A stretch of 60,248 nucleotides of DNA from Candidatus Magasanikiibacteriota bacterium (GTDB taxonomy: Bacteria > Patescibacteriota > Patescibacteriia > Magasanikbacterales > GWA2-37-8): positions 1 to 60,248 of the forward strand of contig JACPGS010000012.1 of the NCBI GenBank assembly GCA_016189025.1, in the 5' to 3' direction. Numbering within the stretch: position 1 is the first letter of the stretch; each line of letters starts with the position of its first letter. Made by a program: the position numbers and the translations under genes. Shown in pieces: positions 179 through 58,640 of the stretch. The notes below the pieces were generated by a model. The model ran no database searches. It was not told the DNA's origin and worked only from the letters and a program-made list of their open reading frames with translations.

Positions 179-210
179 TCGTTGGTAGTTGGGTATTTGA
201 TTATAAAAAT

Positions 211-238
211 CTCCCTGATTAAATCAGGGAGATTTTTG
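211..238 (+). terminator. Rho-independent terminator
   Basis: Hairpin ctccctgat/atcagggag with a 3-nt loop, followed by a T-run (atttttgg). Confidence 0.6.
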
Positions 239-243
239 GTGTG

Positions 244-17630: not shown

Positions 17631-17717
17631 GCGGGCGTGGCGAAATTGGCAGACGCGACAGGTTTAGGACCTGTTGGGAGAAATCCCATGTGGGTTCAAG
17701 TCCCTCCGCCCGCACCA
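17631..17717 (+). tRNA. tRNA-Leu (anticodon TAG)
   Basis: Acceptor GCGGGCG/CGCCCGC, anticodon stem ACAGG/CCTGT with loop TTTAGGA, long variable arm, T loop TTCAAGT (one U-U mismatch in the T stem). CCA is encoded. Confidence 0.85.
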
Positions 17718-18142: not shown

Positions 18143-19730
18143 AATTGTAGCCACGTCCCGCGGGACCTCTGGAAGTTAAAGCAGATAATAATTTGCCCTA
18201 TGTCTTCCAGCGGTTTACTCTTTTTCCCCGGCGGGTGATGGTTTTTTTATCAAGAGCGGCCGCCTGGGGAGCGGTCTTTTTTGTTTCTGAGTGTAAATTG
18301 TGAGCGGAGCGAAGAGTACGAAAGGGATTCTTCGCTGCGCTCAGAATGACAGTGACGATTGCGCCGGAAGGCACTTTGACAATTCAAAAGTAAAGGGTAG
18401 AAACCAAGCCCGGCATTGCTGCGACTAACCGTCGGAGCGGTACCGGGTAAAACCAGAAAGCACTTTTGAGTGTTTTCGTGGTGTGCAATTTCATATTAAG
18501 AGCATACGGTGGATGCCTTGACACCAAAAGACGATGAAGGACGTTGCAGGGTGCGATAAGCCTCGGGGAGCTCCCAAGCAAGCAGTGATCCGGGGATGTC
18601 CGAATGGGGAAACCCATCTGGAACCTTTACGGTTCCGGGTACGGTACAGTGAATCCATAGCTGTGCCGAGAAGACCTGGCGAAGTGAAACATCTCAGTAG
18701 CCAGAGGAAAATAAATCGCAGAGATTCCCTTAGTAGTGGCGAGCGAAACGGGAACAGCCTAAACCTTATCCGTGTGTCTGGAGTATCTGGTTGATCTCAC
18801 GATTAACTTTGGTCTCCAGGTGAAAGCCGCAGGGCGTTGCGGGTAAGGGGTAGTAAGACGTTTACGCTGACTTCCTGCGAAGTCGGGTGATTTAAGTTCT
18901 TTCCTAGCAGAAGGCTCTGGAACGAGCCGCCCAAGCGGGTAACAGCCCCGTACGCGAAAGGAGTGCAAAAATCATAGTAGATGTTCTTGAGTACGGCGGG
19001 ACTCGTGAAATCCCGTCTGAATCCGGGCCGACTATGGTCTAAGGCTAAATACTTTTGGTGATCGATAGTGGACAAGTACCACGAGGGAACGGTGAAAAGC
19101 AGCCCGGTGAGGGCGATGAAATAGTATCTGAAACCGTGTGCTTACCAGGAGCAGGAGACTTGGTCGTCAGAACTCTGGCCGCCGATAGCGGCCAGAGTTC
19201 TGACGACCGGTTAACTGTGTTCCTATTGAAGAATGAGCCTGCGAGTATGTGTGCGCTGCCAGCTTAAGGGCCTATGGCCCGGAGGCGCAGGGAAACCAAG
19301 TCTTAACGGGCGTCTGCCCAGCATCTTTTTGGTGCTGGGTTAAGTAGCGCATATATAACCCGAAACCGGGTGAGCTATCCAGGGCCAGGATGAACCCCTG
19401 CGAAAGCAGGGGGGAGGTCCGCACTCACGCGCCGTGCAACACGCGGAGATGAGCCGTGGATAGGAGAGAAATTCTAATCGAACTCGGTGATAGCTGGTTC
19501 TCCTCGAAATAGTTTTGGGACTAGCCTCGGGAATTTCTGCCGGCGGTAGAGCACTGGATGAGACTCGGGTCCTTCGGGATACCAGTTTCAATCAAACTCC
19601 GAATGCCGAACAGTTAACATCCCGGGAGTCAGAGTGTGGGGGCTAAGCTCCATGCTCAAAAGGGGAACAGCCCAGATCGCCAGCTAAGGTCCCTAAGTCC
19701 AGGTTAAGTGTAAAAGGTGGTGTTAGTTCT

Positions 19731-19768
<38 letters not shown>

Positions 19769-20609
19769 TAAAGAAAGCGTAACAGCTCACTGGTCAAGAG
19801 CTTTCGCGCCGAAAATGTACCGGGGCTCAAACCTGGCACCGAAGCTGCGAATGTCAGTGCTTCGCACCGAAAATTCAAAGGCAGGTTGCTGGTTGAATTT
19901 TTAGCGCGGAGCGCTGGCGTGGTAGAGGAGCGTTCGCTGCGCGGCGAAGCCCTAGGCGTAAGCCGGGGTGGAGCGCAGCGAAGTGAGAATGCAGGCATAA
20001 GTAACACAAAGGACGGTGAGAATCCGTCCCGCCGCAAGCCTAAGGTTTCCTGGGCAACGAGACTCGACCCAGGGTTAGTCGGTCCTAAGGCGAGGCCATT
20101 ATGGCGTAGCCGATGGAAGAGCCGGTTAATATTCCGGCACTGCCGACGGTTTGTTCAAGCGTGCGCATTAGCAAGCTCGGAGCGTGTTTTGAATACGCAT
20201 GTTCCGCAAGGAAAAGAGGAAGCCTTCGGGTGGAATCAATTCCGGGGGAGCTAGTGCCGAGAAAAGCGTTTGGGCGTTAAGCCGTCGGTAACCGTACCGC
20301 AAACCGACACCGGTAGGCGAGGCGAGTAGCCTCAGGCGTACGAGAGAACCCTCGTTTAGGAACTCGGCAATACAACGGCCGTAACTTCGGGATAAGGCCT
20401 GCCCCGACTTAGTCGGGGCTACAACAAAAGACGCACTGCGACTGTTTACCAAAAACACAGCTCCCTGCAAAAGCGCAAGCTGACGTATAGGGAGTGATGC
20501 CTGGCCAGTGTCAGAACGTTAAGGTGAGACGTCAATCCGTCGCAAGATGGAGGCAGCGTTGAGCTGAAGCGCTGATGAACGCCGGCGGTAACTATAACCG
20601 TCCTAAGGT

Positions 20610-20869
20610 CATCGGTTTCATATATTGGAGCCGATGAGGACTGGGACGATTGTAGAAGGTAAATTAAGTTATGCCAACAAAGACTGCCTTACTCTACAGC
20701 AATGTAGAGAGTGTCCAATCATAGCTATATGCTGGGAAGTTCTCTTGCCGAGGGAGCGATCAGCAGGGAACCCTGTACCGCGTTGGATGCAGGGGCGCCT
20801 CAGAGACTAAACGCTATGCTCCCGCCTAAGGCGGGATGAAGATATAGTCCAGACTAAAAGGAAGGTCTC
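20610..20869 (+). mobile_element. Group I intron 1 (ORF-less, about 260 nt), inserted after the E. coli U1931 equivalent
   Basis: Exon cctaaggt | intron | agcgaaattcc. The intron contains the R-like tcagagactaaacg and S-like gaagatatagtcc core elements. Junctions are good to a few nt and the 3' end does not show a terminal G. Confidence 0.7.
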
Positions 20870-20891
20870 AGCGAAATTCCTTGTCGGGTAA

Positions 20892-21602
20892 ACAAATCCT
20901 CAGGTCGGGGAAAATACTTGCCCGAGTATGGTGGCAACACGATACAAGCAAACTGACTCATAACGGTGGAGTCCTTAGTGGATAATACCGTGGGAAGTCC
21001 CGACTAAGTCGGGACCCCGTAACGACTGAGCCGAAAGGCGAGGTTAGACCATAGCAATATGGCTTACAATACGTCAGCTCTTGTCTTAAATGATGTATCC
21101 ATGAAGGAAGCGTCGTACGTAACTGGGCTGGTGGATGGAGAAGGGAGTTTTCTTATCTCTTTCCAGCAGCGAACCAAAATGAAAACTGGGATCGAAGTTA
21201 GGCCCAGTTTTACCCTCAGCCAGCACCAAAGAAATCTCGAGCTGCTCCAGTGGCTGCAAGCGTTCTTTGGTTGTGGTAGTCTCCGCTACAATCGCAGCGA
21301 TGAGACGTATAAGTATGAGGTTCGCAGTATTGATGATCTAACACGAGTGGTTATTCCTCACTTTGAGGCGTATCCACTGAAGTCATCAAAGCATAAAGAT
21401 TTTTTTGTTTTCAAGAAGGTCTGCGAAGCCATACAGCGGAGGGCACATTTAACTCGAGACGGCTTGGAACGTATTATCACTCAAGCGTACGGGATGAATA
21501 ATTTTGGTGCCAGACGATACGATAAGCAATCACTTCTACAGATACTGACAAGATGAAGGTATAGTCTGACCATCATGGTAACATGATGTTAACACAATTG
21601 GA
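20892..21602 (+). mobile_element. Group I intron 2 (about 711 nt) with LAGLIDADG ORF, near the E. coli 1951-1953 equivalent
   Basis: Exon ttgtcgggtaa | intron | gttccgacctgcacgaatgg. The S-like element is gatgaaggtatagtc. The junction is ambiguous by 1-2 nt. Confidence 0.75.
21059..21556 (+). CDS. LAGLIDADG homing endonuclease (single-motif, I-CreI-size)
   Basis: YVTGLVDGEGSFLISF motif, 165 aa. The C-terminus (..SLLQILTR*) runs into the intron core. Confidence 0.85.
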   Translation: MAYNTSALVLNDVSMKEASYVTGLVDGEGSFLISFQQRTKMKTGIEVRPSFTLSQHQRNLELLQWLQAFFGCGSLRYNRSDETYKYEVRSIDDLTRVVIPHFEAYPLKSSKHKDFFVFKKVCEAIQRRAHLTRDGLERIITQAYGMNNFGARRYDKQSLLQILTR

Positions 21603-22087
21603 GTTCCGACCTGCACGAATGGCATAACGATAGTGCGACTGTCTCAACGAGGGACTCGGTGAAATTGCAAGGGAGGTGAAGATGCCTCCTTCCCGCAACT
21701 AGACGAAAAGACCCCGTGAAGCTTTACTACAACTTGCTATTGGTATACGCGTTGGTATGTTGAGCGTAGGTGGGAGCCCGGCCGCAAGGCCGGGCGCCAA
21801 TGAGACACCACCCTTACCGGCGTGTATGCCTAATTTGGGCCCGTGAATCCGGGTTCGGAGACAGTGGCTGGTGGGTAGTTTATCTGGGGCGGATGCCTCC
21901 TAAATTGTAACGGAGGCGTTTACAAAGGTCGGCTTAGCGCGGATGGAAATCGCGCTGGACGGACAAACCCACAAGCCGGCTTTACTGCAAGGGCAGCAAC
22001 CCGCGCAGTCGCGAAAGCGGAAGTTAGTGAACCGACCATCCTATATAGGAAGGTGGAAGATCAACGGATAAAAGCTACTCCGGGGAT

Positions 22088-22952
22088 AGGCCCTAGATTA
22101 GGGCTGTTGTCCCGTCCCGGTAGTAATATCGGGACATGTAAACGGCTAATAACGGTGAAGCCCTCACCCTAACTAAAGCGTTAGGGCGGGTAATACCGTG
22201 GGAAGTTCTTCACTGCGTTCAGTTTACAAATTTATGACGGAACGCGAACAAAATATTGTCGTTGGTTGTATATTAGGTGATGGTTTTATCCAGGCAACCG
22301 GCAAACGCAATGCGCGTTTGCGGCTGGAGCACTCCCAGCGCCAGAAAGATTATCTTTACTGGAAGTGGGCGGAGCTAAAGCACTTAATGCAAGATCGTCC
22401 CAAACTGCTGCAGCGATTTAACCCGGTTTGGAAAAAGACCTACACCTATTGCCGCTGCCAATCTCATAGTTCCCCTCAATTCGGGAAACTGCGCGCCTTG
22501 TTTTATCACGAACAGCGCAAGCGCATCCCCGAGGGAATTAGCAAATGGCTGGCCAAGCCACTGACACTGGCAGTATGGTTTATGGATGATGGATACTATT
22601 TCGCCCGCGATAAAACGGCGTATCTGTATCTGTCGCCTTTGGCCACTCCGGACATCAAACGACTAGAGCAAACGCTCCATCAGGCGTATGGTTTAACACC
22701 GAAACTGGAGCGTAAAAAAACCGGCGCCCTGAACTTTAAGTTCTCGGCCGCCGCCACTAAGCGGCTAATTGCCATTATCGCTCCGCACGTTATCACTAGC
22801 ATGCGGTATAAAATAGGTGAAGAACCCCGTATCGACTGAGTCCATTGGACAAGGTGGCACGCCGGTAGGCGCGCCACAATACGCCGTACTCCTGGCTAGC
22901 GAGCCAGGATGAAGATATAGTCAGTACTCTTAGTAATAAGAGAGAAAATATG
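22088..22952 (+). mobile_element. Group I intron 3 (865 nt) with LAGLIDADG ORF, after the E. coli U2449 equivalent
   Basis: Exon ctccggggat | intron ends ..aaatatg | aacaggctgat. The 5' exon ends in U and the intron ends in G. The S element is gatgaagatatagtc. Confidence 0.8.
22198..22839 (+). CDS. LAGLIDADG homing endonuclease (double-motif type)
   Basis: Two motifs, [11 protein letters not shown] and [12 protein letters not shown]. 213 aa from the GTG start, and the start may instead be the ATG at 22234. Confidence 0.8.
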
Positions 22953-22991
22953 AACAGGCTGATCGGGCCCGATAGTCCACATAGACGGCCC

Positions 22992-23032
<41 letters not shown>

Positions 23033-23063
23033 AAGAAGCTCCCAAGGGTTTGGCTGTTCGCCA

Positions 23064-23107
<44 letters not shown>

Positions 23108-23872
23108 AGATACGTGCTGTCTTTAAATCTAGCTATATGCTGGAAATTCTGGTAAAGTCTCAAAGGAGTGAGACTTGAGTATCTCACACTACTCGTGGTA
23201 TAGTAATTGTACTATGAGTAAAAATGTCGTGAGTGCAGACCACCAGCAGGAAAGAGTAAGAGCAAAACTCAATCCCTGGTACATAGTAGGTTTTGTAGAA
23301 GGCGAGGGAACATTTCACATAGCTTTCTACAAAGATATTCGCATGAAGCAGATAATCAAAGTAATACCGGAATTTCATGTGAACCAAAGTTATTTGAGGA
23401 AAAATACTCTCGAATTGATACAAGAGTATTTTGGCTGCGGTTACCTTAAAGCCAACCATGCCGCTAACCCCAAAGATACTACATATGTGCTCGTGGTGCG
23501 AGATCGCGAGGAATTACTCACGAAAATAATTCCTTTCTTTCGAACTTATCGCCTTCAATCGGTAAAACGCGATAGCTTTATCATCTTTGCTGAGATAGTA
23601 GAGATGATGGCTAAGGGTTTACACCGAACTCAAGAAGGTATTCGTAAAATTATTCAGCTGGCTTACCAGATGAATGTTGGCGGTAAATATAGGCAGCGGA
23701 AAAAAGAGGTTTTATTAAAGCTCTTGCAATCCTCAGAGACTATACGCTAGACCCATGAACCACGTAGGGTTTAGGGAAGATATAGTCCGAACTGCATGGC
23801 GACATGCAGAGCGTATTAGAAATAATACGCCGCCTCGTCCGTCATTTGGCGGATGAGGGGGTAACATATTTG
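23108..23872 (+). mobile_element. Group I intron 4 (765 nt) with LAGLIDADG ORF, after the E. coli U2604 equivalent
   Basis: Exon cgtgagacagt | intron ends ..catatttg | tcggtctcctatctg. The U...G rule is obeyed. R is tcagagactatacg and S is ggaagatatagtcc. Confidence 0.8.
23175..23750 (+). CDS. LAGLIDADG homing endonuclease (single-motif)
   Basis: YIVGFVEGEGTFHIAF motif. The C-terminus ..LLQSSETIR* overlaps the intron R element. The start may be the ATG at 23214. Confidence 0.85.
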   Translation: MSISHYSWYSNCTMSKNVVSADHQQERVRAKLNPWYIVGFVEGEGTFHIAFYKDIRMKQIIKVIPEFHVNQSYLRKNTLELIQEYFGCGYLKANHAANPKDTTYVLVVRDREELLTKIIPFFRTYRLQSVKRDSFIIFAEIVEMMAKGLHRTQEGIRKIIQLAYQMNVGGKYRQRKKEVLLKLLQSSETIR

Positions 23873-24203
23873 TCGGTCTCCTATCTGTTGCGGGCGCGGA
23901 ACATTGCGCAGACTCTTCCCTAGTACGAGAGGACCGGGAAGGATAAACCTCTGGTGTGCCAGTTGTCCCATCCGGGGCATTGCTGGGTAGCTACGTTTAG
24001 CGCGGATAAACGCTGAAAGCATCTAAGCGTGAAGCCGTCTGCCAGATTAATGTTCGTTACAGACCCCTTAAAGACTATAAGGTTGATAGGCGCTAGGTGT
24101 AAGCTCCGTAAGGAGCTGAGCCAAGGCGTACTAATCGGTCAAGCACACCACGGAGACACTTAACAGTGCTTTGGTTGGTCCTACCCTTTATTTGAGTACA
24201 GCC

Positions 24204-24319
24204 TTCTCGGTGTCCGGAGCGGCAGGGTTACACCCGTTCCCATCCCGAACACGGCAGTTAAGCCTGCCAGCGCTGATGATACCCCGTTTATTCGGGGGAA
24301 AGTAGGCCGATGCCGAGAA
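24204..24319 (+). rRNA. rrf: 5S rRNA
   Basis: ..ggttacacccgttcccatcccgaacacggcagttaagcc..gaaagtaggc.. matches the conserved 5S loop C/helix III and loop E regions. The terminal helix is tctcggtg/tgccgaga. Confidence 0.85.
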
Positions 24320-45109: not shown

Positions 45110-45299
45110 TAGATTGTTGAAGAATACCTACTGTATCGTTATTCGCCTGGTCGCTATCGCTACTGCTAAATTTAGCCTGGTTGGTCGCGGCAGACACTCT
45201 TTGGGTGCTCCCCCGATTTAATCGGGGTGCGCGCCCAAAGACACTCGTCTGCCGCGCCTTAATGCTAACTGGTTTTTCCTCCCATTCTTTTACAATCTC
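45110..45299 (-). mobile_element. MITE-like repeat, copy E (190 bp, reverse orientation)
   Basis: TIRs tagattgttgaagaat / attcttttacaatctc. Inner arms gtcgcggcagacactctttggg..cccaaagacactcgtctgccgcgc with the apical ccccgatttaatcgggg. It fills the thyA-folA spacer. Confidence 0.75.
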
Positions 45300-46490: not shown

Positions 46491-49400
46491 TTATTTTTCC
46501 AGTTCGGCGGCTTTAGGCAACAGTTTTTGGAATTCCCGGAATTGTTCTTCGCCAGTAATTCCCATGGCTTCTAGCCTTAGCTGCGCATAGCGGCGCGGAT
46601 CGTTTCTTAAATCTGATGTCGTAGTGGCCAATAAGAGGTTATAGAGGCGGGAAAAGTCTCGGCGGTCAGCCTTATGTAATAAGCTAGCTAACCGTTCGCG
46701 CAGGGCGGCGCGGATGGCCGGGCGCGCTTCTTCCGGCGCCTCTCCGCGGTGCGCCTGGAAGACGTCAATTACCAGGTCGGTTGCTTTCATGGCGGCAAAA
46801 ATTGGGCGGATTAGCTCAACCTGCTCTTCCAGGGCTTGTTTGGCCTCGGCAAATTGTTCAAGAGTAGCGGCGGCAACGCCGGTAGTTTGGTTGAGTTTAA
46901 TTTGCAGTTTATCCAGCTCGGAGAGCGGCCCTGCCAGCCGTTCGTCCGCAAAATCTCCGGCTCCGGGGCGCGTTCCTTGGTAGGCGATAACTATTTCGGC
47001 CAGCCGGCGCGCGCGTAATACGCTGCTTTCTGCCAGCAGCAGGCGGCGCAGATGCTGGTCCGGAGACTGTAGCGCCTCGTTAAGGAGGGGTGCAAGGCGG
47101 CGTTGCTTTGCCGTTAACTCAACCACCCGGCTGATCGTAGCCTGGCGCAGAGCCGGGTCAGTAGTCGCCCGAAGCAATTCTAACACAGCCCGGTAGGGAC
47201 GGGGCGAGCGTTTGGAAAGAGCGTGTTTGGCAAGCTCAATAATCAACAACTGGGCACTGGCCCCCTGCTCTGCCTCCGGGGCCGCGCCGCCGTATAGTTT
47301 GCCCTGCAACGCGGCAATTACCGGAGGAGTAAGCCGGTCTTGGTCGCTTAATTGGTTAAGGGCGCTAGCCAAGGCGGCAAAATCGCGATCTTGGCCAAAA
47401 CGGTCAAACGCCTCGGTGAGCGCCGCAATACTGGCGCCGGTTTCCGCCGGCGTTTCGGTCCGGGAGGCAGCGGGCGCAAGCGGGGCTTCATTCAAGGCAG
47501 CAGGCTCGGCGGCCGCGGTCTCCGCTTCTTCAGTTGTTTCTCCCTCGTCTGCCCCCCAGTCAAATTCAATGTCTCCGCCTTCCGCTGCTTCTGGCGGTGC
47601 TTCGGGGGTAGGCGGCCGGCGGATGTCGTCCACTATTTGCTGGAGTCGGTCAGGCAGATTCAGGATGCCTCCGAAGGTATCTTTAAGTTGTTCCTTCAGA
47701 TAATTATAAACCGCCTCGTTGCGCTGGATTATAAAACGCTCAATCGCCGCGGCAAATTTTTCACGGTTGCCCGGGGTTCGACTCACCCGCTCCAGCACTG
47801 CCCGGCAGAATTCCTCGCGGGTAGGCTGGGTTTTGAATTCATGTATCAAGTAGTCAAACAGTGATTTAACCGCTTTACTGAAGCCAATAGGCGTTTCTTC
47901 TTCAATTTGTACTGCTTCAACTGGGGCGGTGGGGCGAGGCGGCGGCGGGGGAAGTTCGGCTACCACCTCGGCGATATCTTCGTCGGTAACCTCTAGTTCT
48001 ACTCTCGGTAGTATAACAGTCAGCCGTTCGGGGAGCGGCGCCCCAGTGGCTGCTTCGTAAGCCCGAATATCGTGCGCCATAGTGGACGAAAATACTACCG
48101 GCGGTTCTTCTGTTGCTGAAAGCGGAGCCGGAATTGCTTCCGGGAGCGGGGGAACTGGCGCTGCCGCCTCCTCCCCGACGCCGGCCGGTTCTTTTCCGGA
48201 TAGAGGAACAGCAGCGGCGGCTTTGTCCAACGCTAGCCGGAGAGCTTCCAATTTTTCCTTAGAATCGGGTATCAGTTTTTCTCTTTCCTTGTACTTGGAT
48301 ATCAGTTCTTCGGCGGCGGCGCGTAATGCCGGGTCTTCGGCAGCCGGAGGAGCTGCCCGGGGAGGTTCAGCAACAGCCGCTGGCGGAGCTCCTATACCCA
48401 AGCTTACTTCCCCGGGAAACGCGGCTCGGGCCGGGGCAGCCGCCGGCGTCGGTGCGGCAGGTGGGAGTCCTTCGTCTGGCGGCAGCAACGGACGAAGAGC
48501 CGGTCCTTCCCGTTCTGTTGCTGCCGACGGTGGTTTGGATTCTAGACCGGAGGGCGGCGGGCCGCCCCTCATTTCAGTAACAAATTTAGCCCCAGGTTCG
48601 TCTAACCCTCCGCCGACAATTATTCTTGGCGCGGCTTCTCCCGGCGGAGCGCCTGCCATCGTATCTGCTACTGCGGCAGGTCCGCGATGTCTTTCTCCCG
48701 GCGGGGTCGGGCGTTTGGGGCCGCCTGGCCCGGTGGCGCCTGTGGTATGGCCGCGCGCCGCCCCGGTTGTTCCTAATTTTATTTTCGGACCCGCGGCGCG
48801 TTTGGCTTCTGCCGCCCCCTCTTCTTTAGCGGTCTGCTCTTCGGGAGTAAACACATAGTATTGCCCCCTGGTATCAGTAGGTTGAATCAGATATAAGCGT
48901 TCTAGCTCCGCAATTAACTGCGCCAGTCGTTGGGGCGCCGAAAAGCCGAATCTTTGCATCAATTCTTTTTCAGTAATCAAGCGATCCGGGTGTTCGCTGG
49001 GAAATTGGTCCCGCAGATACTCTTTGACGTCGCCTTCCAGATAGTTATCAACTGTTTTAGAATACTGATCAAAAATTTTCCGCCAGGCTGCTGCCTGCTC
49101 TTTAACCCGCGGCCCAAGCGCCGCTACCACCCGGTAAATAATTTGGTCATAATCCGCCTCGCGCAGCGCCATCGCCAGCCCCCGCTCTTTGGATTTTTGT
49201 TTGACGATGCGGGCAATCAAGCGTTCCAAAAAATTTATTTGCGCCTCCTGAAGCTTAATTTGCGCCGCCTCCAGCATATCTATAATCCGTCCGCGCGCCT
49301 CGGCGACGGCAAATTCGCGCCGTCGTTCCTGCGCTTGTTTTTGCAGTCTGTTCGTTTCATATTCAGTAATTTTTTGGCCAAAAGTTCCGCGCACCCCTTC

Positions 49401-51005
49401 CCATTGGCGGAGCCGTTTTTCCCAGTCAGCAATCTGGGCATCAGTTAATTCCGGAGGCGCTGGCTGGCCGGTACGGGGAAATTGCCGGCGATAATGGTCA
49501 ATCGCGATTTTGGCCAGTTCATTAACCATCCGGTCGTAATCAATATCTTCCCAGCTGCCGCCGCGCGCTAAATTTAGCTGACGGGCAATGGCCTCGTCCA
49601 GGGACGCCTCGATCATTTCTGTTTCTGCTTTCGCCAGCGCCGGGAAAGACTTCTTTAGTCGCCGCCGGGCTTCTTTGGCCGCTTCATCGCTTGACGGCAG
49701 AATGGCCGTTTCTGGTTCCTCGGCAACTTCTTCTGATGTTTCTTCCTGCAGTCGTTCCAAAAGTTCTGCCGGCGTTTCTTTGGACCGAAGTCTAATCGCG
49801 GCGCCTACCCGGCCTACCAGGCCAGGTTGATGCTGTGTTCGTGATTCACGCCGGAAGATATTGGGCAAGGTTTGATCGGCCAAAGTTTTTTCTCCAGCCA
49901 TTAGCGAATCCAACTCTTCGGCCTCGGGAAAAAAGAATTTTTTGCCGGAAAAGGCATCCGTCACCTCTACGCCAATCATCCGTGCCCCTCCTTTTTCGCC
50001 TTCGGTAACGGCAGTAATTGTGCCGTTCACCAAGCCGAGGTAAGTTTTTTTCGGTTGCCGTTTTCGCGTCTGCGGATCTTCCTGATGGTAGGTATAAGCG
50101 ACGGTAAAGTTTCTATCGCTGGGCGTTTTAAATTCCTGCACGAACACCACCTGTTTGCCCAGCCGGAAAATATCCGCCAGCGCTTCTTTTTGGCGTTCCT
50201 CGGTGTCTTTTGCTTTTAGAAATGCTTCTTCTTCCGGCCACAAGGGCCACCGGTCTTTAGTTTTAAACTCAACGTTTATCGGCTGCTGGTCACAGCTGGT
50301 ACGATCCAGCAGATTTTTATTTTTGTTTTTAAAATTAATGGTAATCTGCATCTGGGCGCGGTCGCAGCCGGCCACTGCATCCAACAGGTTTTGGGTATAT
50401 TGAATGCGCTCTGCGGCCCGGGCCTTCAGCTTATTTAAAATTTTTGTTGGCCCGGCAGCGGGCGGGAAGTCAGCCGCTTTTTCCCAGTCGGCGCGCGCTT
50501 TTTGCCAGCGCGCCGCGGCTTCTTCTTGATAGCTTAAGCGGTAGTCCTGGGCATTGGCGTGGTAATTGACGCTGGCCAGGCGCAGTTCTTTTACCGCTTT
50601 CAGGTAGCGGTCTAGTGCTGCCTTATTTTCACCCGGCTCCAGATTGGCCAGGTGTTTGGCTAGCGTATCCTCCCACCCCTTTTCTTGCATGTCCGCGCGG
50701 TTAAACACCCGCAAACTCTTTTCCATCTGCTGTACCCGTTTTTCCGGTTCGCCCAGCGCTTTTAGCAGCGCCATGCGTTCTTTGTGCTCTATGAGCTTAT
50801 GCCCGCGGTGCGCATCAAACCCCATCTTAAACGGGAGGCCGTTTTCCCGCGCGGTGCGGTAGCGGTGATGGCGCAATGCCACCACGGCCTCGGCTACGGT
50901 GGCCGGAGCATGATGCTCGGCCGCCGCTTCCGGGTGGCGGGCATCAGCTGGTTTTGGTTGGGGTTCTGGCGGGGGCGCGCCGCGTCCGCGTTCGCTGGGA
51001 CTCAT
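46491..51005 (-). CDS. Orphan giant protein (1504 aa) with a central Pro/Ala/Gly-rich low-complexity region and helical flanks
   Basis: Uninterrupted 4.5-kb ORF co-oriented with the thymidylate operon. No signal peptide, TM segment or catalytic motif that I can recognise. Confidence 0.7.
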   Translation of the reverse strand: MSPSERGRGAPPPEPQPKPADARHPEAAAEHHAPATVAEAVVALRHHRYRTARENGLPFKMGFDAHRGHKLIEHKERMALLKALGEPEKRVQQMEKSLRVFNRADMQEKGWEDTLAKHLANLEPGENKAALDRYLKAVKELRLASVNYHANAQDYRLSYQEEAAARWQKARADWEKAADFPPAAGPTKILNKLKARAAERIQYTQNLLDAVAGCDRAQMQITINFKNKNKNLLDRTSCDQQPINVEFKTKDRWPLWPEEEAFLKAKDTEERQKEALADIFRLGKQVVFVQEFKTPSDRNFTVAYTYHQEDPQTRKRQPKKTYLGLVNGTITAVTEGEKGGARMIGVEVTDAFSGKKFFFPEAEELDSLMAGEKTLADQTLPNIFRRESRTQHQPGLVGRVGAAIRLRSKETPAELLERLQEETSEEVAEEPETAILPSSDEAAKEARRRLKKSFPALAKAETEMIEASLDEAIARQLNLARGGSWEDIDYDRMVNELAKIAIDHYRRQFPRTGQPAPPELTDAQIADWEKRLRQWEGVRGTFGQKITEYETNRLQKQAQERRREFAVAEARGRIIDMLEAAQIKLQEAQINFLERLIARIVKQKSKERGLAMALREADYDQIIYRVVAALGPRVKEQAAAWRKIFDQYSKTVDNYLEGDVKEYLRDQFPSEHPDRLITEKELMQRFGFSAPQRLAQLIAELERLYLIQPTDTRGQYYVFTPEEQTAKEEGAAEAKRAAGPKIKLGTTGAARGHTTGATGPGGPKRPTPPGERHRGPAAVADTMAGAPPGEAAPRIIVGGGLDEPGAKFVTEMRGGPPPSGLESKPPSAATEREGPALRPLLPPDEGLPPAAPTPAAAPARAAFPGEVSLGIGAPPAAVAEPPRAAPPAAEDPALRAAAEELISKYKEREKLIPDSKEKLEALRLALDKAAAAVPLSGKEPAGVGEEAAAPVPPLPEAIPAPLSATEEPPVVFSSTMAHDIRAYEAATGAPLPERLTVILPRVELEVTDEDIAEVVAELPPPPPRPTAPVEAVQIEEETPIGFSKAVKSLFDYLIHEFKTQPTREEFCRAVLERVSRTPGNREKFAAAIERFIIQRNEAVYNYLKEQLKDTFGGILNLPDRLQQIVDDIRRPPTPEAPPEAAEGGDIEFDWGADEGETTEEAETAAAEPAALNEAPLAPAASRTETPAETGASIAALTEAFDRFGQDRDFAALASALNQLSDQDRLTPPVIAALQGKLYGGAAPEAEQGASAQLLIIELAKHALSKRSPRPYRAVLELLRATTDPALRQATISRVVELTAKQRRLAPLLNEALQSPDQHLRRLLLAESSVLRARRLAEIVIAYQGTRPGAGDFADERLAGPLSELDKLQIKLNQTTGVAAATLEQFAEAKQALEEQVELIRPIFAAMKATDLVIDVFQAHRGEAPEEARPAIRAALRERLASLLHKADRRDFSRLYNLLLATTTSDLRNDPRRYAQLRLEAMGITGEEQFREFQKLLPKAAELEK

Positions 51006-53195: not shown

Positions 53196-53873
53196 TTAAC
53201 TTTCGCTGATTTTAATTGCCGGGCCCATGCTGGTGGCCAGTACCAGGTTTTGGATAAAGATGCCTTTGGCGCTGCCGGGTTTGGCGCGCTTCAGCGCTTC
53301 CAAAAAAGCCGCCAGATTTTCTTTGAGCGCCGCTTCCGTAAAACTCACCCGGCCGATTGCCACATGGACGTTGCCCGCATCATCGTTTTTGAAAGTGAGC
53401 TTGCCCCGCTTATGTTCGGTAATCAGTTTGCTGATCTGCGGCCCCACGGTATCGGTTTTCGGATTAGGCATCAGCCCCTTGGGCCCTAAAATTTTGGCGA
53501 TTACTGCCAGCTTGGGCATCATTTCGGGTAAAGTTACCGCAATGTCAAACTCAATTTTGCCGGTATCCTTAATCCGTTTAATGTCTTCTTCGCCGCATAC
53601 CAAATCGGCGCCGGCGGCTTTGGCTTCGGCTTCTTTTTCCGCCGGCACAAAAGCTGCCACCCGTTTGGTTTTGCCGCTGCCGTGGGGCAGCGCCACCGTA
53701 GAGCGCACCTGCTGTTCGCCCTTTTTGGTGTCAATGCCCAGCCGCGCATGCACTTCTACCGCGGCGTCAAATTTTACGCCGCTCGTTTGTTTAGCGAGCG
53801 CTATCGCTTCGTCCCAGGAGTAAACTTTGCGCGGGTCAACTTTTGTCCGCAGGGCGTCCATTCGTTTGGACAT
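53196..53873 (-). CDS. rplA: 50S ribosomal protein L1
   Basis: ..KFDAAVEVHARLGIDTKKGEQQVRSTVALPHGSGK.. is canonical L1. Confidence 0.95.
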   Translation of the reverse strand: MSKRMDALRTKVDPRKVYSWDEAIALAKQTSGVKFDAAVEVHARLGIDTKKGEQQVRSTVALPHGSGKTKRVAAFVPAEKEAEAKAAGADLVCGEEDIKRIKDTGKIEFDIAVTLPEMMPKLAVIAKILGPKGLMPNPKTDTVGPQISKLITEHKRGKLTFKNDDAGNVHVAIGRVSFTEAALKENLAAFLEALKRAKPGSAKGIFIQNLVLATSMGPAIKISES

Positions 53874-54031: not shown

Positions 54032-54514
54032 ATGCAACAAGCAGAACGACCCAAGTTTAAGTTATTCAAGGCGTCCGAATACCGCGTCGGTATTGCGGTC
54101 GCCCAATTTAATCGGGCGATTACCCGGCGTTTATTGGCCGGCGCGCGCGCTTGTTTGCTGCGCTACGGCGTGCCGGCGCGGCAGATTACCGTGGCAGAAG
54201 TGGCGGGGAGTATTGAATTGCCGGTGGCGCTGCAGGCGCTGGCGGAAACCGGGCGCTATAATTGTCTGGTGGCGCTCGGCGCGATAATTCGCGGCGCTAC
54301 GCCTCATTTTGATTATGTCGGTAAAATTGCCAGCGAAGGAATTCTGCGGGTAATGCTGGATTATCATCTGCCCGTTGGTTTTGGCGTGCTGACTTGCGAT
54401 ACGCTGGCGCAAGCCCGGGCGCGGGTGGGCGCTGGCGAGCAAGCTACCGAAGCGGCGCTGCAAAGCGCGCGGTTATTGTCCGAAGTTCGTTTAAGCCGCC
54501 AGCGGAATGCGTAG
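54032..54514 (+). CDS. ribH: 6,7-dimethyl-8-ribityllumazine synthase
   Basis: RVGIAVAQFNRAITRRLL..GAIIRGATPHFDYV.., with the SD gaggt upstream. Confidence 0.9.
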   Translation: MQQAERPKFKLFKASEYRVGIAVAQFNRAITRRLLAGARACLLRYGVPARQITVAEVAGSIELPVALQALAETGRYNCLVALGAIIRGATPHFDYVGKIASEGILRVMLDYHLPVGFGVLTCDTLAQARARVGAGEQATEAALQSARLLSEVRLSRQRNA

Positions 54515-54544
54515 TTAAGTGGTATTGGCGATAGAATTATAAAA

Positions 54545-54580
54545 CAAAAAATCCCCCCGATTTAATCGGGGGGATTTTTT
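54545..54580. terminator. Bidirectional intrinsic terminator
   Basis: aaaaaatcccccc-gattta-atcggggggatttttt is a GC stem flanked by A-run and T-run. It can serve ribH (+) and the minus-strand RNA candidate. Confidence 0.7.
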
Positions 54581-54584
54581 GTGA

Positions 54585-54911
54585 GAGAAAAATGTTCCTC
54601 CGCCGGGATTTGCACCCGGAATTCTCTGTGAGGGAGTGGGGATGTGTGGTACCTCGCGAATCAGCCGGAACATTCGTGGCCGGCGTGCCGCGCTTTTCGC
54701 AGGGCAGCCTCTCCGACGAAGCGGGCCGTAACGAGAGGGGAAAACATGGCTGTTGGTAAGGTAAATTTGGCCCTCCCAAAGCGTTTTGTCTAACTTAGCC
54801 GCCCTTCTCCTGGGCATACCCCCATGCTACTACCCAAAATGGTACGCCGGTGGGGTAAAAGACGGCCTCCCGATATTGTTAAAATTACGGGAGAACTACG
54901 GAGGAATATCT
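54585..54911 (-). ncRNA. Unclassified structured RNA candidate (about 320 nt plus terminator)
   Basis: The predicted 5' end (ttcctccg, 54899-54906) pairs with the 3' end (cggaggaa, 54595-54602). Multiple internal hairpins are present, and a tRNA-like 3' module CCGGG-TGCAAAT-CCCGG is followed directly by the closing-stem strand. No credible ORF. Confidence 0.5.
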
Positions 54912-54917
54912 GATGGT

Positions 54918-54946
54918 ACTGTAGCGCCCTGGTCTAGAAATGTCAA
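54918..54946 (-). promoter_or_regulatory. Sigma70-type promoter for the RNA candidate
   Basis: On the minus strand: TTGACA (54946-54941), 17 nt, TACAGT (54923-54918). Confidence 0.55.
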
Positions 54947-55150
54947 GAGGGGAGGGCAAGTAATTATGCACCTTTTTTCCACTTTTTATCCTCCACGCCT
55001 ATTTTCCATACACCTTTAATAGTAGTGGCGCCATTTTTTACACTATTTTCACTCTTTGGTCAAGATAAACGTGAAAAATTGAGGTAAAACGAGTAAATTT
55101 CACGGTTATAATGTGATTTGCGTGAGGAGTGAATTGCCCCGCCGCCGTTT

Positions 55151-56206
55151 TTAATTGGCGAGATAAACCGTTGATTTACCTTTGCCCGCCGCTTTGATCA
55201 TTTTTATTTTTTTGAGTTTTTGCAGATGCAATTGTGCGGTTCGTTTTGGGCAGGACAAAATATCCCCAACATCTTTAGCAGAGATTCTGCCGACTTGATC
55301 TAGGAAGTCAATAATTTTGAGCTGGTCGGGAGTAAGATAAATTTGCAATTTAATTTTTCCGTCAATCGCGTAGGCAGATAGGGACAGGATTTTATCTTTT
55401 ACATTATCAATTTCGTTTCTGAATCCTTTGACAAAATATTCTAACCAGGAAGTGATGTCAGTCCTTCGTTTGTCGTAATTTTCGCCAACATTGATTGCTT
55501 GGTAATAATCTCGTCGCTTAGTATTGTAATAATCTTCCAGCGCGAAAAGTCTGCGAAAATCGTAGCCACGCTGGTAAAGTATCAGTGTTGCTAAGGCGCG
55601 AGCGGTGCGTCCGTTGCCGTCATTAAAGGGGTGGATAGCCGCAATTTCCAAATGAGCTATCCCCGCCACTAATACCGGGCTGATTTCTTTTTGTTCGCTT
55701 GTTTTTAGCCAATTTACAAAATCTGCCATTAGGTTTGGAACCTGTTTGGCGTCCGGGCCGGTGTATAAAATTTCTTGCGGCATCCCCAAACGGCGGCGTA
55801 CTACATAAATTGGCCCGGGTCGGTAAGCCCCAGAAAATTGCGGAGCCAAAGTTTTGTCGGTAACAAGTTTATGGATTTTTAATATTACTTTTTCGGTTAT
55901 TGGTTTATGTTCTGCTACCACTTTGGCAATATATTTTAAGGCATTGAGATAATTTTTGACCTCGTAGATATCCCGATCGGGAGCGTCGATTTTTTTCTTG
56001 GCGTACAGCGCCTCCACCTGGGCCATGTTTAATTGGTTGCCTTCTATTTCAGTCGAGTGGTGAGTCATGCGGATAACGGCTTGCCGGCGCAAACGCACTT
56101 CTTGCTGGGGCAAAATTTTGGCACGATCAATAAATCCCTTGGTTTCGGCAATGGCGGTGAGGTTTGCTAAAATTTTGTTATTAAGTTTGTATTTTGGGAC
56201 AAACAT
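55151..56206 (-). CDS. Fic-family protein with internal inhibitory-helix motif and C-terminal wHTH
   Basis: Fic motif HPFNDGNGRTARAL, inhibitory motif STEIEGN ([ST]xxxE[GN]) N-terminal to it, and a C-terminal ..ISAKDVGDILSCPKRTAQLHLQKLKKIKMIKAAGKGKSTVY wHTH-like segment. The gene is AT-rich. Confidence 0.85.
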   Translation of the reverse strand: MFVPKYKLNNKILANLTAIAETKGFIDRAKILPQQEVRLRRQAVIRMTHHSTEIEGNQLNMAQVEALYAKKKIDAPDRDIYEVKNYLNALKYIAKVVAEHKPITEKVILKIHKLVTDKTLAPQFSGAYRPGPIYVVRRRLGMPQEILYTGPDAKQVPNLMADFVNWLKTSEQKEISPVLVAGIAHLEIAAIHPFNDGNGRTARALATLILYQRGYDFRRLFALEDYYNTKRRDYYQAINVGENYDKRRTDITSWLEYFVKGFRNEIDNVKDKILSLSAYAIDGKIKLQIYLTPDQLKIIDFLDQVGRISAKDVGDILSCPKRTAQLHLQKLKKIKMIKAAGKGKSTVYLAN

Positions 56207-56231
56207 ATCGCTTTTTTGCTACTCTAAACCC

Positions 56232-56283
56232 ATTATATCACAAAATCACGAATCGCGCAAGATTCGCGCAAGATTCGCGCAAA
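56232..56283 (-). promoter_or_regulatory. Fic promoter with a tandem 11-bp repeat array over the -35 region
   Basis: On the minus strand: extended -10 TGaTATAAT (+ strand attata at 56232-56237), preceded by three tandem cttgcgcgaat units (+ strand gattcgcgcaa x3, 56249-56283), each offering a TTGCGC -35-like hexamer. Confidence 0.5.
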
Positions 56284-56420
56284 GAATTTGCTAAACCGTA
56301 TTATCCATACGGTATCGCAGTTGCGTTAGATTCTGGAATCTACTTAACGTACGCGCATATACGATGTTGCGTCAGCAATATGGGAGAGGGCTTTGGAAAA
56401 GCCCGAACCGTATATGCGCT

Positions 56421-56997
56421 GTTAGCTGTTGTATTTGTTTTTCTTTGCCGCCGCGCACGGCGGCTGGCTTTAACAAATTAACGATTTTGTTTTTACTCAT
56501 TTTTGGCGGGGCAAAATGGAGCATAATTATTTATGTTTAGTTTACCAGGCTTGCATCCAGCATCCTAACCCAACGATACCGAACTGATCAATCATTAGGG
56601 TAGTTATTATTGGGACAATAATAAGCGTTAAGAATATTTTGGTATAGGATCTTTTTTTAGAAAACAAGTATATATTGATAATGCCGGTTATGATGACGAA
56701 AATTGCAAGGAAAATAGATGATGCTTCAAGACTTTGGTGGAATAATCCACTTAAATATTGGCAGCGTGAGTTGCCGGATCCAAACGTAGGAGAGAGACTG
56801 TTTAGATAAAAAAAATAAAGAGTAAACAAAACAATTCCGGCAGTTCCAAAATAATTGAGTTTCGGGTTCCACCAGTCGGTTATTTTAATTATTTTTTTCA
56901 TATTTCCCCTTTATAAATAAAAACAAAATCGTTAATTTTTTAAAGCCACGCCCGCCTCACAGCGGGCGAAAGAAAAACAAATATTGCAGCTAACTAG
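56421..56997. mobile_element. Cassette bounded by about 80-bp imperfect inverted repeats, carrying a small membrane-protein gene
   Basis: The left arm gttagctgttgtatttgtttttctttgccgccgcgcacggcggctggctttaacaaattaacgattttgttttta matches the reverse complement of the right arm (..taaaaacaaaatcgttaattttttaaagccacgcccgcctcacagcgggcgaaagaaaaacaaatattgcagctaac). Confidence 0.65.
56542..56901 (-). CDS. Small polytopic membrane protein (119 aa, about 4 TM)
   Basis: Hydrophobic segments GTAGIVLFTLYFFYL, SSIFLAIFVIITGIINIYLF, IFLTLIIVPIITTLMI. AT-rich. Confidence 0.55.
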   Translation of the reverse strand: MKKIIKITDWWNPKLNYFGTAGIVLFTLYFFYLNSLSPTFGSGNSRCQYLSGLFHQSLEASSIFLAIFVIITGIINIYLFSKKRSYTKIFLTLIIVPIITTLMIDQFGIVGLGCWMQAW

Positions 56998-57021
56998 TTT
57001 TATCTTAACTCTTCTGTAGTT

Positions 57022-58005: not shown

Positions 58006-58029
58006 AAAAAATAACAATAGCCCAGGGAT

Positions 58030-58293
58030 TTAATAGCGGCGATAGATATCGTGCGGCCCGACATCAAGCAGATTGATTTGGTCGGCAGCAGCGAATTCAA
58101 AAAGCACTCGGTATCCTTGGTTGAGACGAAAGGCCAGACATTCTTGCAGCCGGCCTTTGAGTTTATGCGTTTTGAGCAGGGGATGGCGCGGGTTGGTGAT
58201 GAAGATTGCTACTTTAGTTTTGAAGTCTGCTTGAATTACCGTTGGCAATTTTTGGTACGCCCGGGTGAAGCGCGACGAAAGCTTGACCAGCAT
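58030..58293 (-). CDS. RelE/ParE-superfamily type II toxin
   Basis: ..PRHPLLKTHKLKGRLQECLAFRLNQGYRVLFEF..INLLDVGPHDIY is typical of RelE/YafQ-like toxins. It starts 1 nt after the upstream small ORF. Confidence 0.7.
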   Translation of the reverse strand: MLVKLSSRFTRAYQKLPTVIQADFKTKVAIFITNPRHPLLKTHKLKGRLQECLAFRLNQGYRVLFEFAAADQINLLDVGPHDIYRRY

Positions 58294-58294
58294 A

Positions 58295-58555
58295 TCATGA
58301 CTCCAGCGCCGCAATTAGGCTTTTGGCAGTTTTGTGAGTAGTATAATTGCCTAAGGCATAATCAAGTCGCGCTTCATTGATAATTTCGTCAAGCGTCTCG
58401 GCGCGGTTTACTCTTTTCAGGGCATTGACGGCGATTTCCACCACGATCTTTTTTTCGCGGGGATATTGAGCCAGATAATGGAAAGCTGACAGGGGGATAT
58501 TTATCATTGCCTCACGGGTTTTTTTGGAATGTTTAGTAACAGTTTGAGTTTCCAT
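58295..58555 (-). CDS. Putative cognate antitoxin
   Basis: 86-aa ORF immediately upstream of and coupled to the toxin gene. Confidence 0.55.
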   Translation of the reverse strand: METQTVTKHSKKTREAMINIPLSAFHYLAQYPREKKIVVEIAVNALKRVNRAETLDEIINEARLDYALGNYTTHKTAKSLIAALES

Positions 58556-58640
58556 AACAATTAAAATTCAGTAAGTGAGAGGCTAGATGATAGGGTATCA
58601 TATCTGCCAAACACAAGCAAATCCGAGCAGATTTTAAGTA

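Follow-up and report, generated by a model that had tools for sequence, protein, structure and literature searches.

A putative tRNA-mimic RNA gene with an acceptor-like stem and T-arm in a Candidatus Magasanikiibacteriota genome

Between ribH and a Fic gene of a Candidatus Magasanikiibacteriota genome we describe here a locus that, in our tentative reading, may well be a genuine lineage-restricted RNA gene, encoding a stand-alone, stable tRNA-mimic RNA of about 310 nt that would be matured like a tRNA or tmRNA. In this candidate RNA, an acceptor-like stem of 7 bp made by the two ends would stack on a T-arm to give a 12-bp minihelix, and a body of about 270 nt would stand in for the D-loop, the anticodon arm and the variable region of a tRNA. 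The body would leave the junction via a D-stem-like helix, and the resulting topology would be that of tmRNA. All positions given here are those of the window, the whole stretch of 60,248 nt that was analysed, and the candidate RNA is read on its minus strand (Table 1).

Table 1. Features of the candidate RNA locus, in positions of the window
Feature	Position	Strand	Basis
Sigma-70-type promoter	54918..54946	-	Promoter scan; TTGACA, 17 nt, TACAGT; 10/12 consensus matches
Predicted primary transcript, ~369 nt	54544..54912	-	Promoter and terminator positions
Predicted mature tRNA-like-ended core, ~311 nt	54595-54905	-	Promoter and terminator positions
Closing, acceptor-like stem, 5' strand U-UCCUCCG	54899..54906	-	Perfect complement of 54595-54602
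U8, then A9-GUUC-UC; proposed 5' strand of helix X	54891..54898	-	tRNA-style U8/A9/D-stem; direct reading
Hairpin CUCCCG - 15-nt A/U-rich loop - CGGGAG	54867..54893	-	Minimum-free-energy structure; alternative to helix X
Body, ~240 nt	54627..54866	-	Single-sequence structure predictions
GAGAAUU, proposed 3' strand of helix X	54620..54626	-	D-stem-like GAAU plus U; abuts T-arm
T-arm CCGGG-UGCAAAU-CCCGG	54603..54619	-	5-bp stem, 7-nt loop; direct reading
Acceptor-like stem, 3' strand CGGAGGA, plus A at discriminator position	54595..54602	-	Direct reading
Bidirectional intrinsic terminator, common to the convergent ribH gene	54544..54582	.	Perfect 19-bp palindrome

The tRNA-like character of the locus is concentrated at its ends. 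The 5' strand UUCCUCCG (54906-54899) is fully complementary to CGGAGGAA (54602-54595) over 8 bp, which bears out the perfect pairing of the 5' end with cggaggaa that a sequence-only reading of this DNA had proposed, and the closing stem reaches a mean pair probability of 0.98-1.0 in the Boltzmann ensemble. The acceptor pairs are U1-A72, C2-G71, C3-G70, U4-A69, C5-G68, C6-G67 and G7-C66. The A at the discriminator position had been described as unpaired, but the U directly preceding the 7-bp stem is available as its partner. CAU follows this A, and a CCA is not encoded. The T-arm adjoins the 3' closing strand with zero spacer and has an ensemble probability of 0.90, so that the proposed T-arm plus acceptor geometry was confirmed: a 7-bp acceptor, a 5-bp T-stem and a 7-nt T-loop correspond exactly to a tRNA. 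A G-C pair closes the T-stem beside the 7-nt loop. As in a T-loop, the first loop nucleotide is U and the fifth is A, but G replaces U at position 55; the loop reads UGC where the host's own tRNAs have UUC. Because real tRNAs and tmRNAs elsewhere use the identical T-arm sequence, UGCAAAU is a working T-loop variant. In metagenomes the identical 17-mer of the T-arm occurs in genuine tRNAs, in tmRNAs and in cobalamin riboswitches.

The arrangement of these elements is rarely reached by chance. The T-arm and the 3' strand were kept fixed, and the 293 nt upstream of them were dinucleotide-shuffled 20,000 times. In 0.7% of the shuffles the first 25 nt of the transcript contained a 7-nt partner with no more than one G-U, and in 0.02% such a partner occurred along with a second, junction helix of 5 bp or more. 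A descriptor scan that required acceptor, junction helix and T-arm was run over 3.0 Mb on both strands; with a 7-bp junction helix it matched the candidate RNA and identical copies of it only, and two weaker false positives with 5 bp were also obtained. The folding energy of the whole molecule is mildly unusual (z = -2.1, the same value on both strands). The statistically convincing part is the tRNA-like end module only.

The likeness to tRNA reaches beyond what the sequence-only reading had noticed, since the 5' end is acceptor-U8-A9-GUUC. The GUUC after the acceptor can pair with GAAU just 5' of the T-arm, and this pairing, if it forms, would give a tmRNA-like three-way junction without an anticodon arm. 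Extended on both sides, AGUUCUC pairs with GAGAAUU in a 7-bp helix that includes one G-U, termed helix X here. Its ensemble probability is just 0.007, because the competing CUCCCG/CGGGAG hairpin is more stable (0.975). For the body, the predictions suggest a GCCGUCUUUU/AGAAGGGCGGC helix that encloses a GCGUACC/GGUAUGC hairpin. They also include two more hairpins, one central and one long and irregular, and on the 3' side a single strand rich in C, CAUCCCCACUCCCUCACA. The six internal hairpins listed earlier, cucccg/cgggag, uacccc/ggggua, gccc/gggc, ccucuc/gagagg, gccgg/ccggc and cgaau/auucg, are all present in the sequence, but several of them are mutually exclusive, and internal hairpins and body fold alike are predicted from a single sequence.

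On the minus strand, the candidate RNA is bounded by transcription signals. The promoter that had been read there, with TTGACA, 17 nt and TACAGT, is in place, with the -35 element at 54946-54941, the -10 element at 54923-54918 and the 17-nt spacer between them. Within 1.6 kb there are 4 promoter-like sites, compared to 2.4 in shuffles, and it is the best of them; the form TTGACA-17-TAnAnT also precedes real genes in relatives (L013). Transcription is predicted to start at about 54911-54912, 5-6 nt ahead of the closing stem. The strong bidirectional terminator was recovered as well (54582-54544), its palindrome being flanked by U/A tracts on both sides, and it begins 12 nt past the 3' strand of the closing stem. 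Terminator-like sequences are present at other places in the window and in one relative. As an argument for a tRNA-mimic gene the terminator counts for less, since ribH requires one in any case. Within about 6 kb the neighbours are ribH, Fic, a DUF308-like ORF, TrpRS, TGT, L1, a deaminase and a kinase-like ORF; a repeat or paralogue of the candidate RNA was not found elsewhere in the window. In the same window, a group I intron and LAGLIDADG genes sit in the 23S rRNA.

From stop to stop, the gap between ribH and Fic measures 636 bp and not about 570 bp as first estimated. The accompanying statement that it holds no credible ORF needs qualification: ORFs of 100, 80, 77, 55 and 49 aa overlap the region, although none of the five has a Pfam match at E<=0.1. 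Such frames would suit a small-protein mRNA, and a gene caller did call one of them on truncated contigs. Alternatively, the locus could be a cis-regulatory element such as a cobalamin-type riboswitch with the same T-loop hairpin, given that the identical hairpin CCGGGUGCAAAUCCCGG is present in cobalamin riboswitches. We consider this pair of explanations highly improbable. A search among 5.8 billion proteins gave no homolog of the 100-aa ORF, the longest ORF runs through the terminator, and by direct reading no Shine-Dalgarno context is visible before the overlapping ORFs. As for a riboswitch of the cobalamin type, it would have a B12-box core around the T-loop hairpin. Here the hairpin is followed by CGGAGGAAC, compared to ..CCCGCCACUG.. 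in true cobalamin examples, and neither cobalamin nor other riboswitch models reach a match at E<=10. Moreover, there is no gene to regulate downstream on the minus strand, just the antisense of ribH.

Known RNA families were searched with cmscan against Rfam, at gathering thresholds and then, with stretches of 601 nt and of 324 nt, at E<=10. At gathering thresholds no match was obtained at the candidate RNA, in agreement with the lack of an Rfam-type signature noted before; at E<=10, terminator look-alikes and one 10-bit partial match on the T-loop hairpin were recovered, and nothing else. The earlier exclusion of tmRNA, RNase P RNA and SRP RNA is upheld. SRP RNA, 6S RNA, group I and II introns and riboswitches have no support from cmscan, which also gave no Y RNA family match, and ARAGORN made no call on the candidate RNA even with relaxed settings.

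Among known families, tmRNA comes closest in topology, and a highly divergent tmRNA (ssrA) performing trans-translation has to be weighed. Acceptor and T-arm would close a body of about 300 nt in the same way, with a promoter and a terminator of its own, the length lies within the tmRNA range, some real tmRNAs use the identical T-arm 17-mer, and one frame stops at UAG UAG inside a hairpin loop. Nevertheless, we regard such a tmRNA as very unlikely. The third acceptor pair is C3-G70 in place of the G3-U70 wobble that gives tmRNA its alanine identity, a G-U pair appears in no register, and the GGGG 5' end that usually accompanies the wobble is missing. At the place of the D-loop analogue, which has about 8-12 nt in tmRNA, there are just 1-2 nt (U or UA). 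A tmRNA tag frame starts from a resume codon, spans about 10-27 codons and closes with a hydrophobic C-terminus and a stop codon. The three frames here end in ...EKGG-stop, ...YHFG-stop-stop and ...GRLS-stop, none of which resembles a degradation tag, and no frame combines a tag starting with Ala and a hydrophobic C-terminus. Covariance models stay silent at E<=10, even in the 324-nt search, ARAGORN is negative, and global alignment to five tmRNAs is no better than that of shuffles (z -2.6 to 1.1); these five tmRNAs score 20-265 against each other. A canonical tmRNA is rejected, the alanine identity pair and the tag reading frame both being missing.

Two kinds of RNA in the candidate phyla radiation (CPR) call for a closer look. 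In 10 of 35 circular CPR genomes, RNase P RNA was found only when thresholds were lowered to about 5 bits, and CPR RNase P RNAs often miss helices (PMC8172020). A diverged RNase P RNA of CPR type that falls below the Rfam cut-offs would fit the length and the helix that joins the ends, and the string ACAGAGAA faintly resembles the conserved ACAGAA. Yet no RNase P model reaches E<=10 in the 324-nt search, and direct reading reveals neither a GGAAAGUCC-type strand nor an ACAGAA..GGCUUA-type one with which it could form the catalytic P4 pseudoknot. Where RNase P RNA has contiguous 3' strands of P2 and P1, a 17-nt hairpin (54603-54619) would intervene here, and the identification is scarcely credible to us. 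In the second case, a group I or other intron would split a tRNA gene. Group I introns are present in CPR tRNAs (PMC8172020), and we found a tRNA-Asn(GUU) with a 196-nt intron in another Patescibacterium (L279:1087-1359), a real example from the same phylum. The 5' end UCCUCCGUAGUUC is tRNA-like, and the 23S rRNA of the window itself, with its group I intron and LAGLIDADG genes, adds to the appeal of this explanation. However, 1359 spliced variants of 66-95 nt, in which every single insertion was removed, gave 0 tRNA calls by ARAGORN, and its intron mode yields sub-threshold junk only. RF00028 scores the 23S intron of the window with 58.7 bits and finds nothing here at E<=10, and by direct reading an anticodon arm is found on neither side. 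The intron-interrupted tRNA is thus largely refuted, and we give it next to no credence. In CPR genomes, standard annotation misses diverged RNase P RNAs and tRNAs split by introns, and an unclassified tRNA-like locus therefore calls for explicit tests before it is taken as new.

Conservation in relatives, on whose absence the sequence-only reading had said its proposal would founder, was lacking in all searches made. The exact 27-mer of T-arm and acceptor has 0 matches in the GTDB species genomes, and the degenerate pattern GAGAAYTNNNGGTGCRAATCC gave 48 random matches there, 0 of them from Patescibacteria, and 1 random match in viral contigs, where further pattern scans returned no real match. 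In metagenomes, no homolog appeared among the matches listed for the T-arm 17-mer (at least 120 loci), which consist of tRNAs, tmRNAs, cobalamin riboswitches, archaeal-looking tRNAs and coding sequence. Blastn against phages and plasmids gave no match to the candidate RNA, and nhmmer and blastn against all retrieved loci produced T-arm and terminator matches at most. The syntenic interval from TrpRS to L1 holds no counterpart in four relatives (L013, L018, L022, L032), and the candidate RNA is absent from the neighbourhoods of ribH relatives, of 80 TGT relatives and of 80 Fic relatives, one of the latter at 86% identity. Look-ups by exact protein recovered identical copies of the locus and nothing else. 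The recovered copies are all identical to one another and accordingly offer neither covariation nor a sign of selection. Relatives of L1 reach 75% identity at most, indicating that no close sister genome is in the databases, and literature searches found no described CPR tRNA-like RNA. As a conserved, functional structured RNA the candidate is unproven, in its reality as well as in its function.

The main rival to our reading is a non-functional relic of a tRNA-like or tmRNA-like gene, or of an integration target, that was left next to a low-GC island gained by transfer. Descent would then explain the tRNA-like ends, and the match to a promoter would be a coincidence. A relic would account for the absence of the candidate RNA in every relative examined, including the four with conserved flanking synteny, and for a 5' end that resembles an ordinary tRNA 5' end, and it would sit well with the mild thermodynamic signal. 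The locus lies exactly at the edge of the low-GC island 54950-57000. The Fic gene of this island is 86% identical to a Buchananbacterium one, compared to 50-56% for the housekeeping TGT, which indicates recent transfer. Still, we judge the relic to be somewhat unlikely. In a decayed tRNA one would not expect a closing stem of 8 perfect base pairs to be preserved over about 300 nt together with an intact T-arm and a junction helix of 7 bp, nor would one expect a well-placed 10/12 promoter. The GC content of the candidate RNA (0.52-0.54) is like that of host genes and unlike that of the adjoining island. Islands that target tRNA genes usually sit at the 3' end, whereas the island here is on the 5' side of the candidate RNA, and an integrase is not among the ORFs of the interval.

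If the locus is indeed a tRNA-mimic RNA gene, its expression could follow the route of tRNAs. The sigma-70 promoter would give rise to a precursor whose leader measures 5-6 nt and whose trailer, about 50 nt long, has the terminator at its end. RNase P would recognise the acceptor/T-arm minihelix and remove the leader, and 3' trimming and the CCA-adding enzyme would complete the 3' end. It seems plausible that the tRNA-like end stabilises the RNA, docks it onto a tRNA-binding partner, or both, and that the specific function is carried by the body. A further step, which we think doubtful, is that with the candidate RNA a novel class of bacterial tRNA-mimic RNAs has come into view for the first time, RNAs that combine the topology of tmRNA with the absence of alanine identity and of a tag frame. 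An RNA of this kind would enter tRNA maturation via RNase P and CCA addition and might be charged by another anticodon-independent synthetase. It might also dock on the ribosome or on a tRNA-binding enzyme, with a function unrelated to classical trans-translation. To our knowledge, no widespread bacterial RNA other than tmRNA has a large functional body closed by the top half of a tRNA. Another RNA of this build, unrelated to tmRNA, would, if real, mean that tRNA mimicry as a handle for maturation or docking evolved more than once. It would also offer a testable way into the RNA biology of the candidate phyla radiation, about which little is known.

Compared with known systems, the candidate RNA shares single traits with several of them. 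With RNase P RNA it has in common a comparable size and a terminal helix uniting both ends. Like an intron-containing CPR tRNA, it starts with acceptor-UA-GUUC and ends with T-arm and acceptor, with a few hundred nucleotides between, but it has no anticodon arm, no D-loop and no group I core signal. YrlA, a bacterial Y RNA-like partner of Ro60/Rsr, is reported to be a non-coding RNA that resembles a tRNA in acceptor, T-arm and D-stem and has no anticodon arm, a mimicry that serves docking or processing and not decoding (PMC4201824). Mimicry of the upper half of a tRNA without an anticodon arm would be common to both RNAs. In YrlA, which has about 100-150 nt and adjoins rsr, the Ro-binding stem is built from the ends of the RNA, with the tRNA-like module lying inside; in the candidate RNA of about 310 nt, in contrast, the ends form the acceptor stem, and the neighbours are ribH, Fic, TrpRS, TGT, L1 and a deaminase, with rsr not among them. 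Compared with tmRNA, the candidate RNA differs in that CCA is not encoded. The two would agree in a short 5' leader and in the missing anticodon arm, and in the candidate RNA, as in tmRNA, a helix abutting the T-arm would lead a body of about 270-300 nt out of the tRNA-like domain.

Between ribH and the Fic gene, the minus strand of the window carries a candidate RNA gene, with a predicted tRNA-like-ended core of ~311 nt (54595-54905), here called the RNA. The locus has a suitably positioned promoter and terminator and lacks coding potential, and its acceptor/T-arm minihelix, with the tRNA-style sequence U8-A9-GUUC, is statistically non-random. The sequence-only reading had proposed this promoter, the terminator, the closing (acceptor-like) stem and the T-arm, and all are read on the minus strand at 54946-54544; its observation is confirmed, since every hairpin that it listed is also present in the minus-strand sequence. 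The promoter pattern, as TTGACA-17-TAnAnT, also stands before real genes in relatives. The terminator hairpin AAAAAATCCCCCCGATTTAATCGGGGGGATTTTTT is nearly repeated within the window (205-240, 45210-45227, 54544-54582) and in a Magasanikbacteria relative (L022:1984-2019).

Features of the RNA locus and of the rRNA region in the window
Feature	Position	Strand	Remarks
ribH-Fic gap	between ribH (54032-54514, +) and Fic gene (55151-56206, -)		636 bp
Promoter TTGACA-17-TACAGT	54946-54918	-	10/12 consensus positions (promoter scan)
Predicted transcript	between promoter and terminator	-	~369 nt
Bidirectional terminator	54582-54544	both	perfect 19-bp
Closing stem, 5' strand UUCCUCCG	54906-54899	-	~5-6 nt from predicted start
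Closing stem, 3' strand CGGAGGAA	54602-54595	-	exact complement of UUCCUCCG
T-arm hairpin CCGGG-UGCAAAU-CCCGG	54619-54603	-	immediately 5' of closing-stem 3' strand
Group I intron in 23S rRNA	20609-20871		
LAGLIDADG endonuclease ORF	21059-21556		within 23S match
Two more LAGLIDADG ORFs	22198-22839, 23175-23750		between reported 23S end (22143) and 5S rRNA (24206)

Pair probabilities in the Boltzmann ensemble are 0.98-1.0 for the closing stem and 0.90 for the T-arm, and both elements dominate it. With the T-arm and the 3' strand fixed and the upstream 293 nt dinucleotide-shuffled, a 7-nt partner at most 25 nt from the 5' end arose in 0.7% of 20,000 shuffles, and together with an adjoining junction helix in 0.02%. 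A descriptor of acceptor, junction helix and T-arm, scanned over both strands of 3.0 Mb, matched only the RNA and its identical copies when the 7-bp junction helix was included; the descriptor works, because it picks up real tmRNAs once this helix is dropped. Ensemble dominance, shuffle rarity and descriptor specificity thus make it convincing that the end module is beyond chance. The modelled internal fold is not yet convincing; the whole-molecule folding energy has a z of only -2.1, and the opposite strand is equal.

The likeness to tRNA exceeds what had first been described, and the 7-bp acceptor strand followed by U8, A9 and GUUC is the ordinary pattern of tRNAs extracted from related loci. 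AGUUCUC is complementary to GAGAAUU, whose 3' limit is the T-arm start, and in the model their pairing can join acceptor, D-stem-like helix and T-arm in a three-way junction that has no anticodon arm, the same topology as in the tRNA-like domain of tmRNA. This helix has an ensemble probability of only 0.007, its rival being the CUCCCG/CGGGAG hairpin (54867-54893), and a fold constrained to contain it costs ~3 kcal/mol. The T-loop is UGCAAAU, compared with UUC loops in the window's own tRNAs; it is a working variant, because the identical 17-nt T-arm occurs in real metagenomic tRNAs, tmRNAs and cobalamin riboswitches. Among the metagenome matches listed (L093-L212), this arm, with G for U at position 55, is common to many tRNAs (Cys, Met, His-like and others), some of which miss the D-loop GG, and recurs in a tmRNA group (GGGGGCG...CGCCUCCACCA) and cobalamin riboswitches. 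Two AT-rich contigs (L097:3780-3925 and L198, minus strand) bear tRNA-like genes with a leader GUGCAGAGG complementary to the trailer CCUCUGCAC beyond the acceptor stem, which looks like an extended processing helix. Another locus (L140, entire, minus strand) has 29 ARAGORN tRNA calls, some with introns, and a tmRNA in 14.7 kb, and so resembles the arrays of tRNA genes found in very large phages.

At gathering thresholds Rfam gave no match at the RNA, while elsewhere in the window the same run detected 23S, 5S, four tRNAs and a group I intron. At E<=10, a search of 601 nt yielded only terminator look-alikes, and one of 324 nt a single 10-bit partial group II match on the T-loop hairpin. ARAGORN was negative by default and returned only junk under relaxed settings. 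In the rRNA region (window 18489-24318), the 23S match covers 3655 nt, compared with 2925 nt for the model, and is preceded by tRNA-Leu (17631-17717), not 16S rRNA. A divergent tmRNA is a minor and very unlikely reading: the RNA has C3-G70 as third acceptor pair, a G-U pair is absent in every register, and both a D-loop analogue and a plausible tag frame are lacking. It aligns globally to five tmRNAs, four of them with the identical T-arm, no better than shuffles do, while alignments among these tmRNAs give scores well over background. RNase P RNAs of circular CPR genomes can fall below Rfam cut-offs (PMC8172020); a diverged one can hardly be credited here, as the RNA lacks the P4 strands, matches no RNase P model at E<=10 and has a hairpin between its last two 3' strands. 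Transfer RNAs in such genomes can carry group I introns (PMC8172020), and we found a genuine CPR case in another Patescibacteria MAG (L279:1087-1359), a tRNA-Asn(GUU) with its anticodon loop split by a ~196-nt group I intron (core GUAGAGACUAUA ... GAGAUAGUCC) that standard tRNA finders would miss. That the RNA is an intron-containing tRNA has next to no likelihood; it has no anticodon arm, and 0 of 1359 single-excision variants were called tRNA. An mRNA or riboswitch is likewise minor and highly improbable. Against protein coding, overlapping ORFs have no Pfam hit and no ribosome-binding context, and the 100-aa ORF has no relatives among 5.8 billion proteins.

In GTDB species genomes, neither an exact 27-mer nor a degenerate junction/T-loop pattern found a relative of the RNA. 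None came to light with the T-arm 17-mer among the matches listed (at least 120 metagenomic loci), in three viral scans, by blastn against phages and plasmids, near relatives of ribH, Fic and TGT, or when nhmmer, blastn and the descriptor were applied to a collection of over 340 loci. Seven contigs from six runs of one project carry the locus, all identical over the RNA. Judged by relatives of ribH, L1 and TGT, the window belongs to Patescibacteria and lies close to Magasanikbacteria, Doudnabacteria and Kerfeldbacteria; the best identities are only 60%, 75% and 56%, respectively, and databases contain no close sister genome. Four relatives (L013, L018, L022, L032) keep the order TGT-TrpRS-...-L1-deaminase-kinase, with other genes and no comparable RNA between TrpRS and L1; in the window this interval is occupied by the Fic gene, the RNA, a ribH standing alone and a small ORF that inverted repeats enclose. 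In these four and the window (53196-53873) the L1 gene stands without L11, and that of L013 follows a promoter and a structured-looking leader. Other side observations are a 620-bp TGT-TrpRS gap (58018-58640) with short ORFs only and no T-box or other Rfam family at E<=1, and a 1504-aa ORF without Pfam domain (46491-51005, minus strand).

The Fic gene and the small ORF lie in a low-GC island (~54950-57000; GC 0.33-0.45 versus about 0.55). The Fic gene shares 86% identity with one from a Buchananbacteria MAG (L213), compared with only 50-56% for housekeeping TGT to any relative, which suggests recent horizontal transfer among candidate-phyla-radiation bacteria. No RNA counterpart adjoins the Buchananbacteria gene; therefore, the RNA is not a Fic partner. 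Between Fic and TrpRS, nested inverted repeats (56421-56994; 36 nt at 92%, 26 nt at 88%) surround a 119-aa ORF (56542-56901, minus strand) with only a weak DUF308 match, and look like a small element with terminal inverted repeats. The RNA adjoins the island edge but differs from it in composition, its GC of 0.52-0.54 being like that of host genes. The main rival, a non-functional relic at this border, is favoured by the complete lack of conservation; it is nevertheless rather unlikely, given that the long-range pairing is intact, that the composition is like the host's and that a promoter is present.

We tentatively prefer an RNA that would be transcribed and then matured in the manner of tRNA and tmRNA, by RNase P and 3'-end enzymes, and whose tRNA-like end may be a stability or docking handle for its body. 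If real, this striking architecture would be of importance. In presumed working tmRNA is closest and YrlA a looser likeness, although the RNA fails the tests that define either class; judged from a single sequence of one uncultured genome, it would belong with the tRNA-mimic non-coding RNAs, as a variant.
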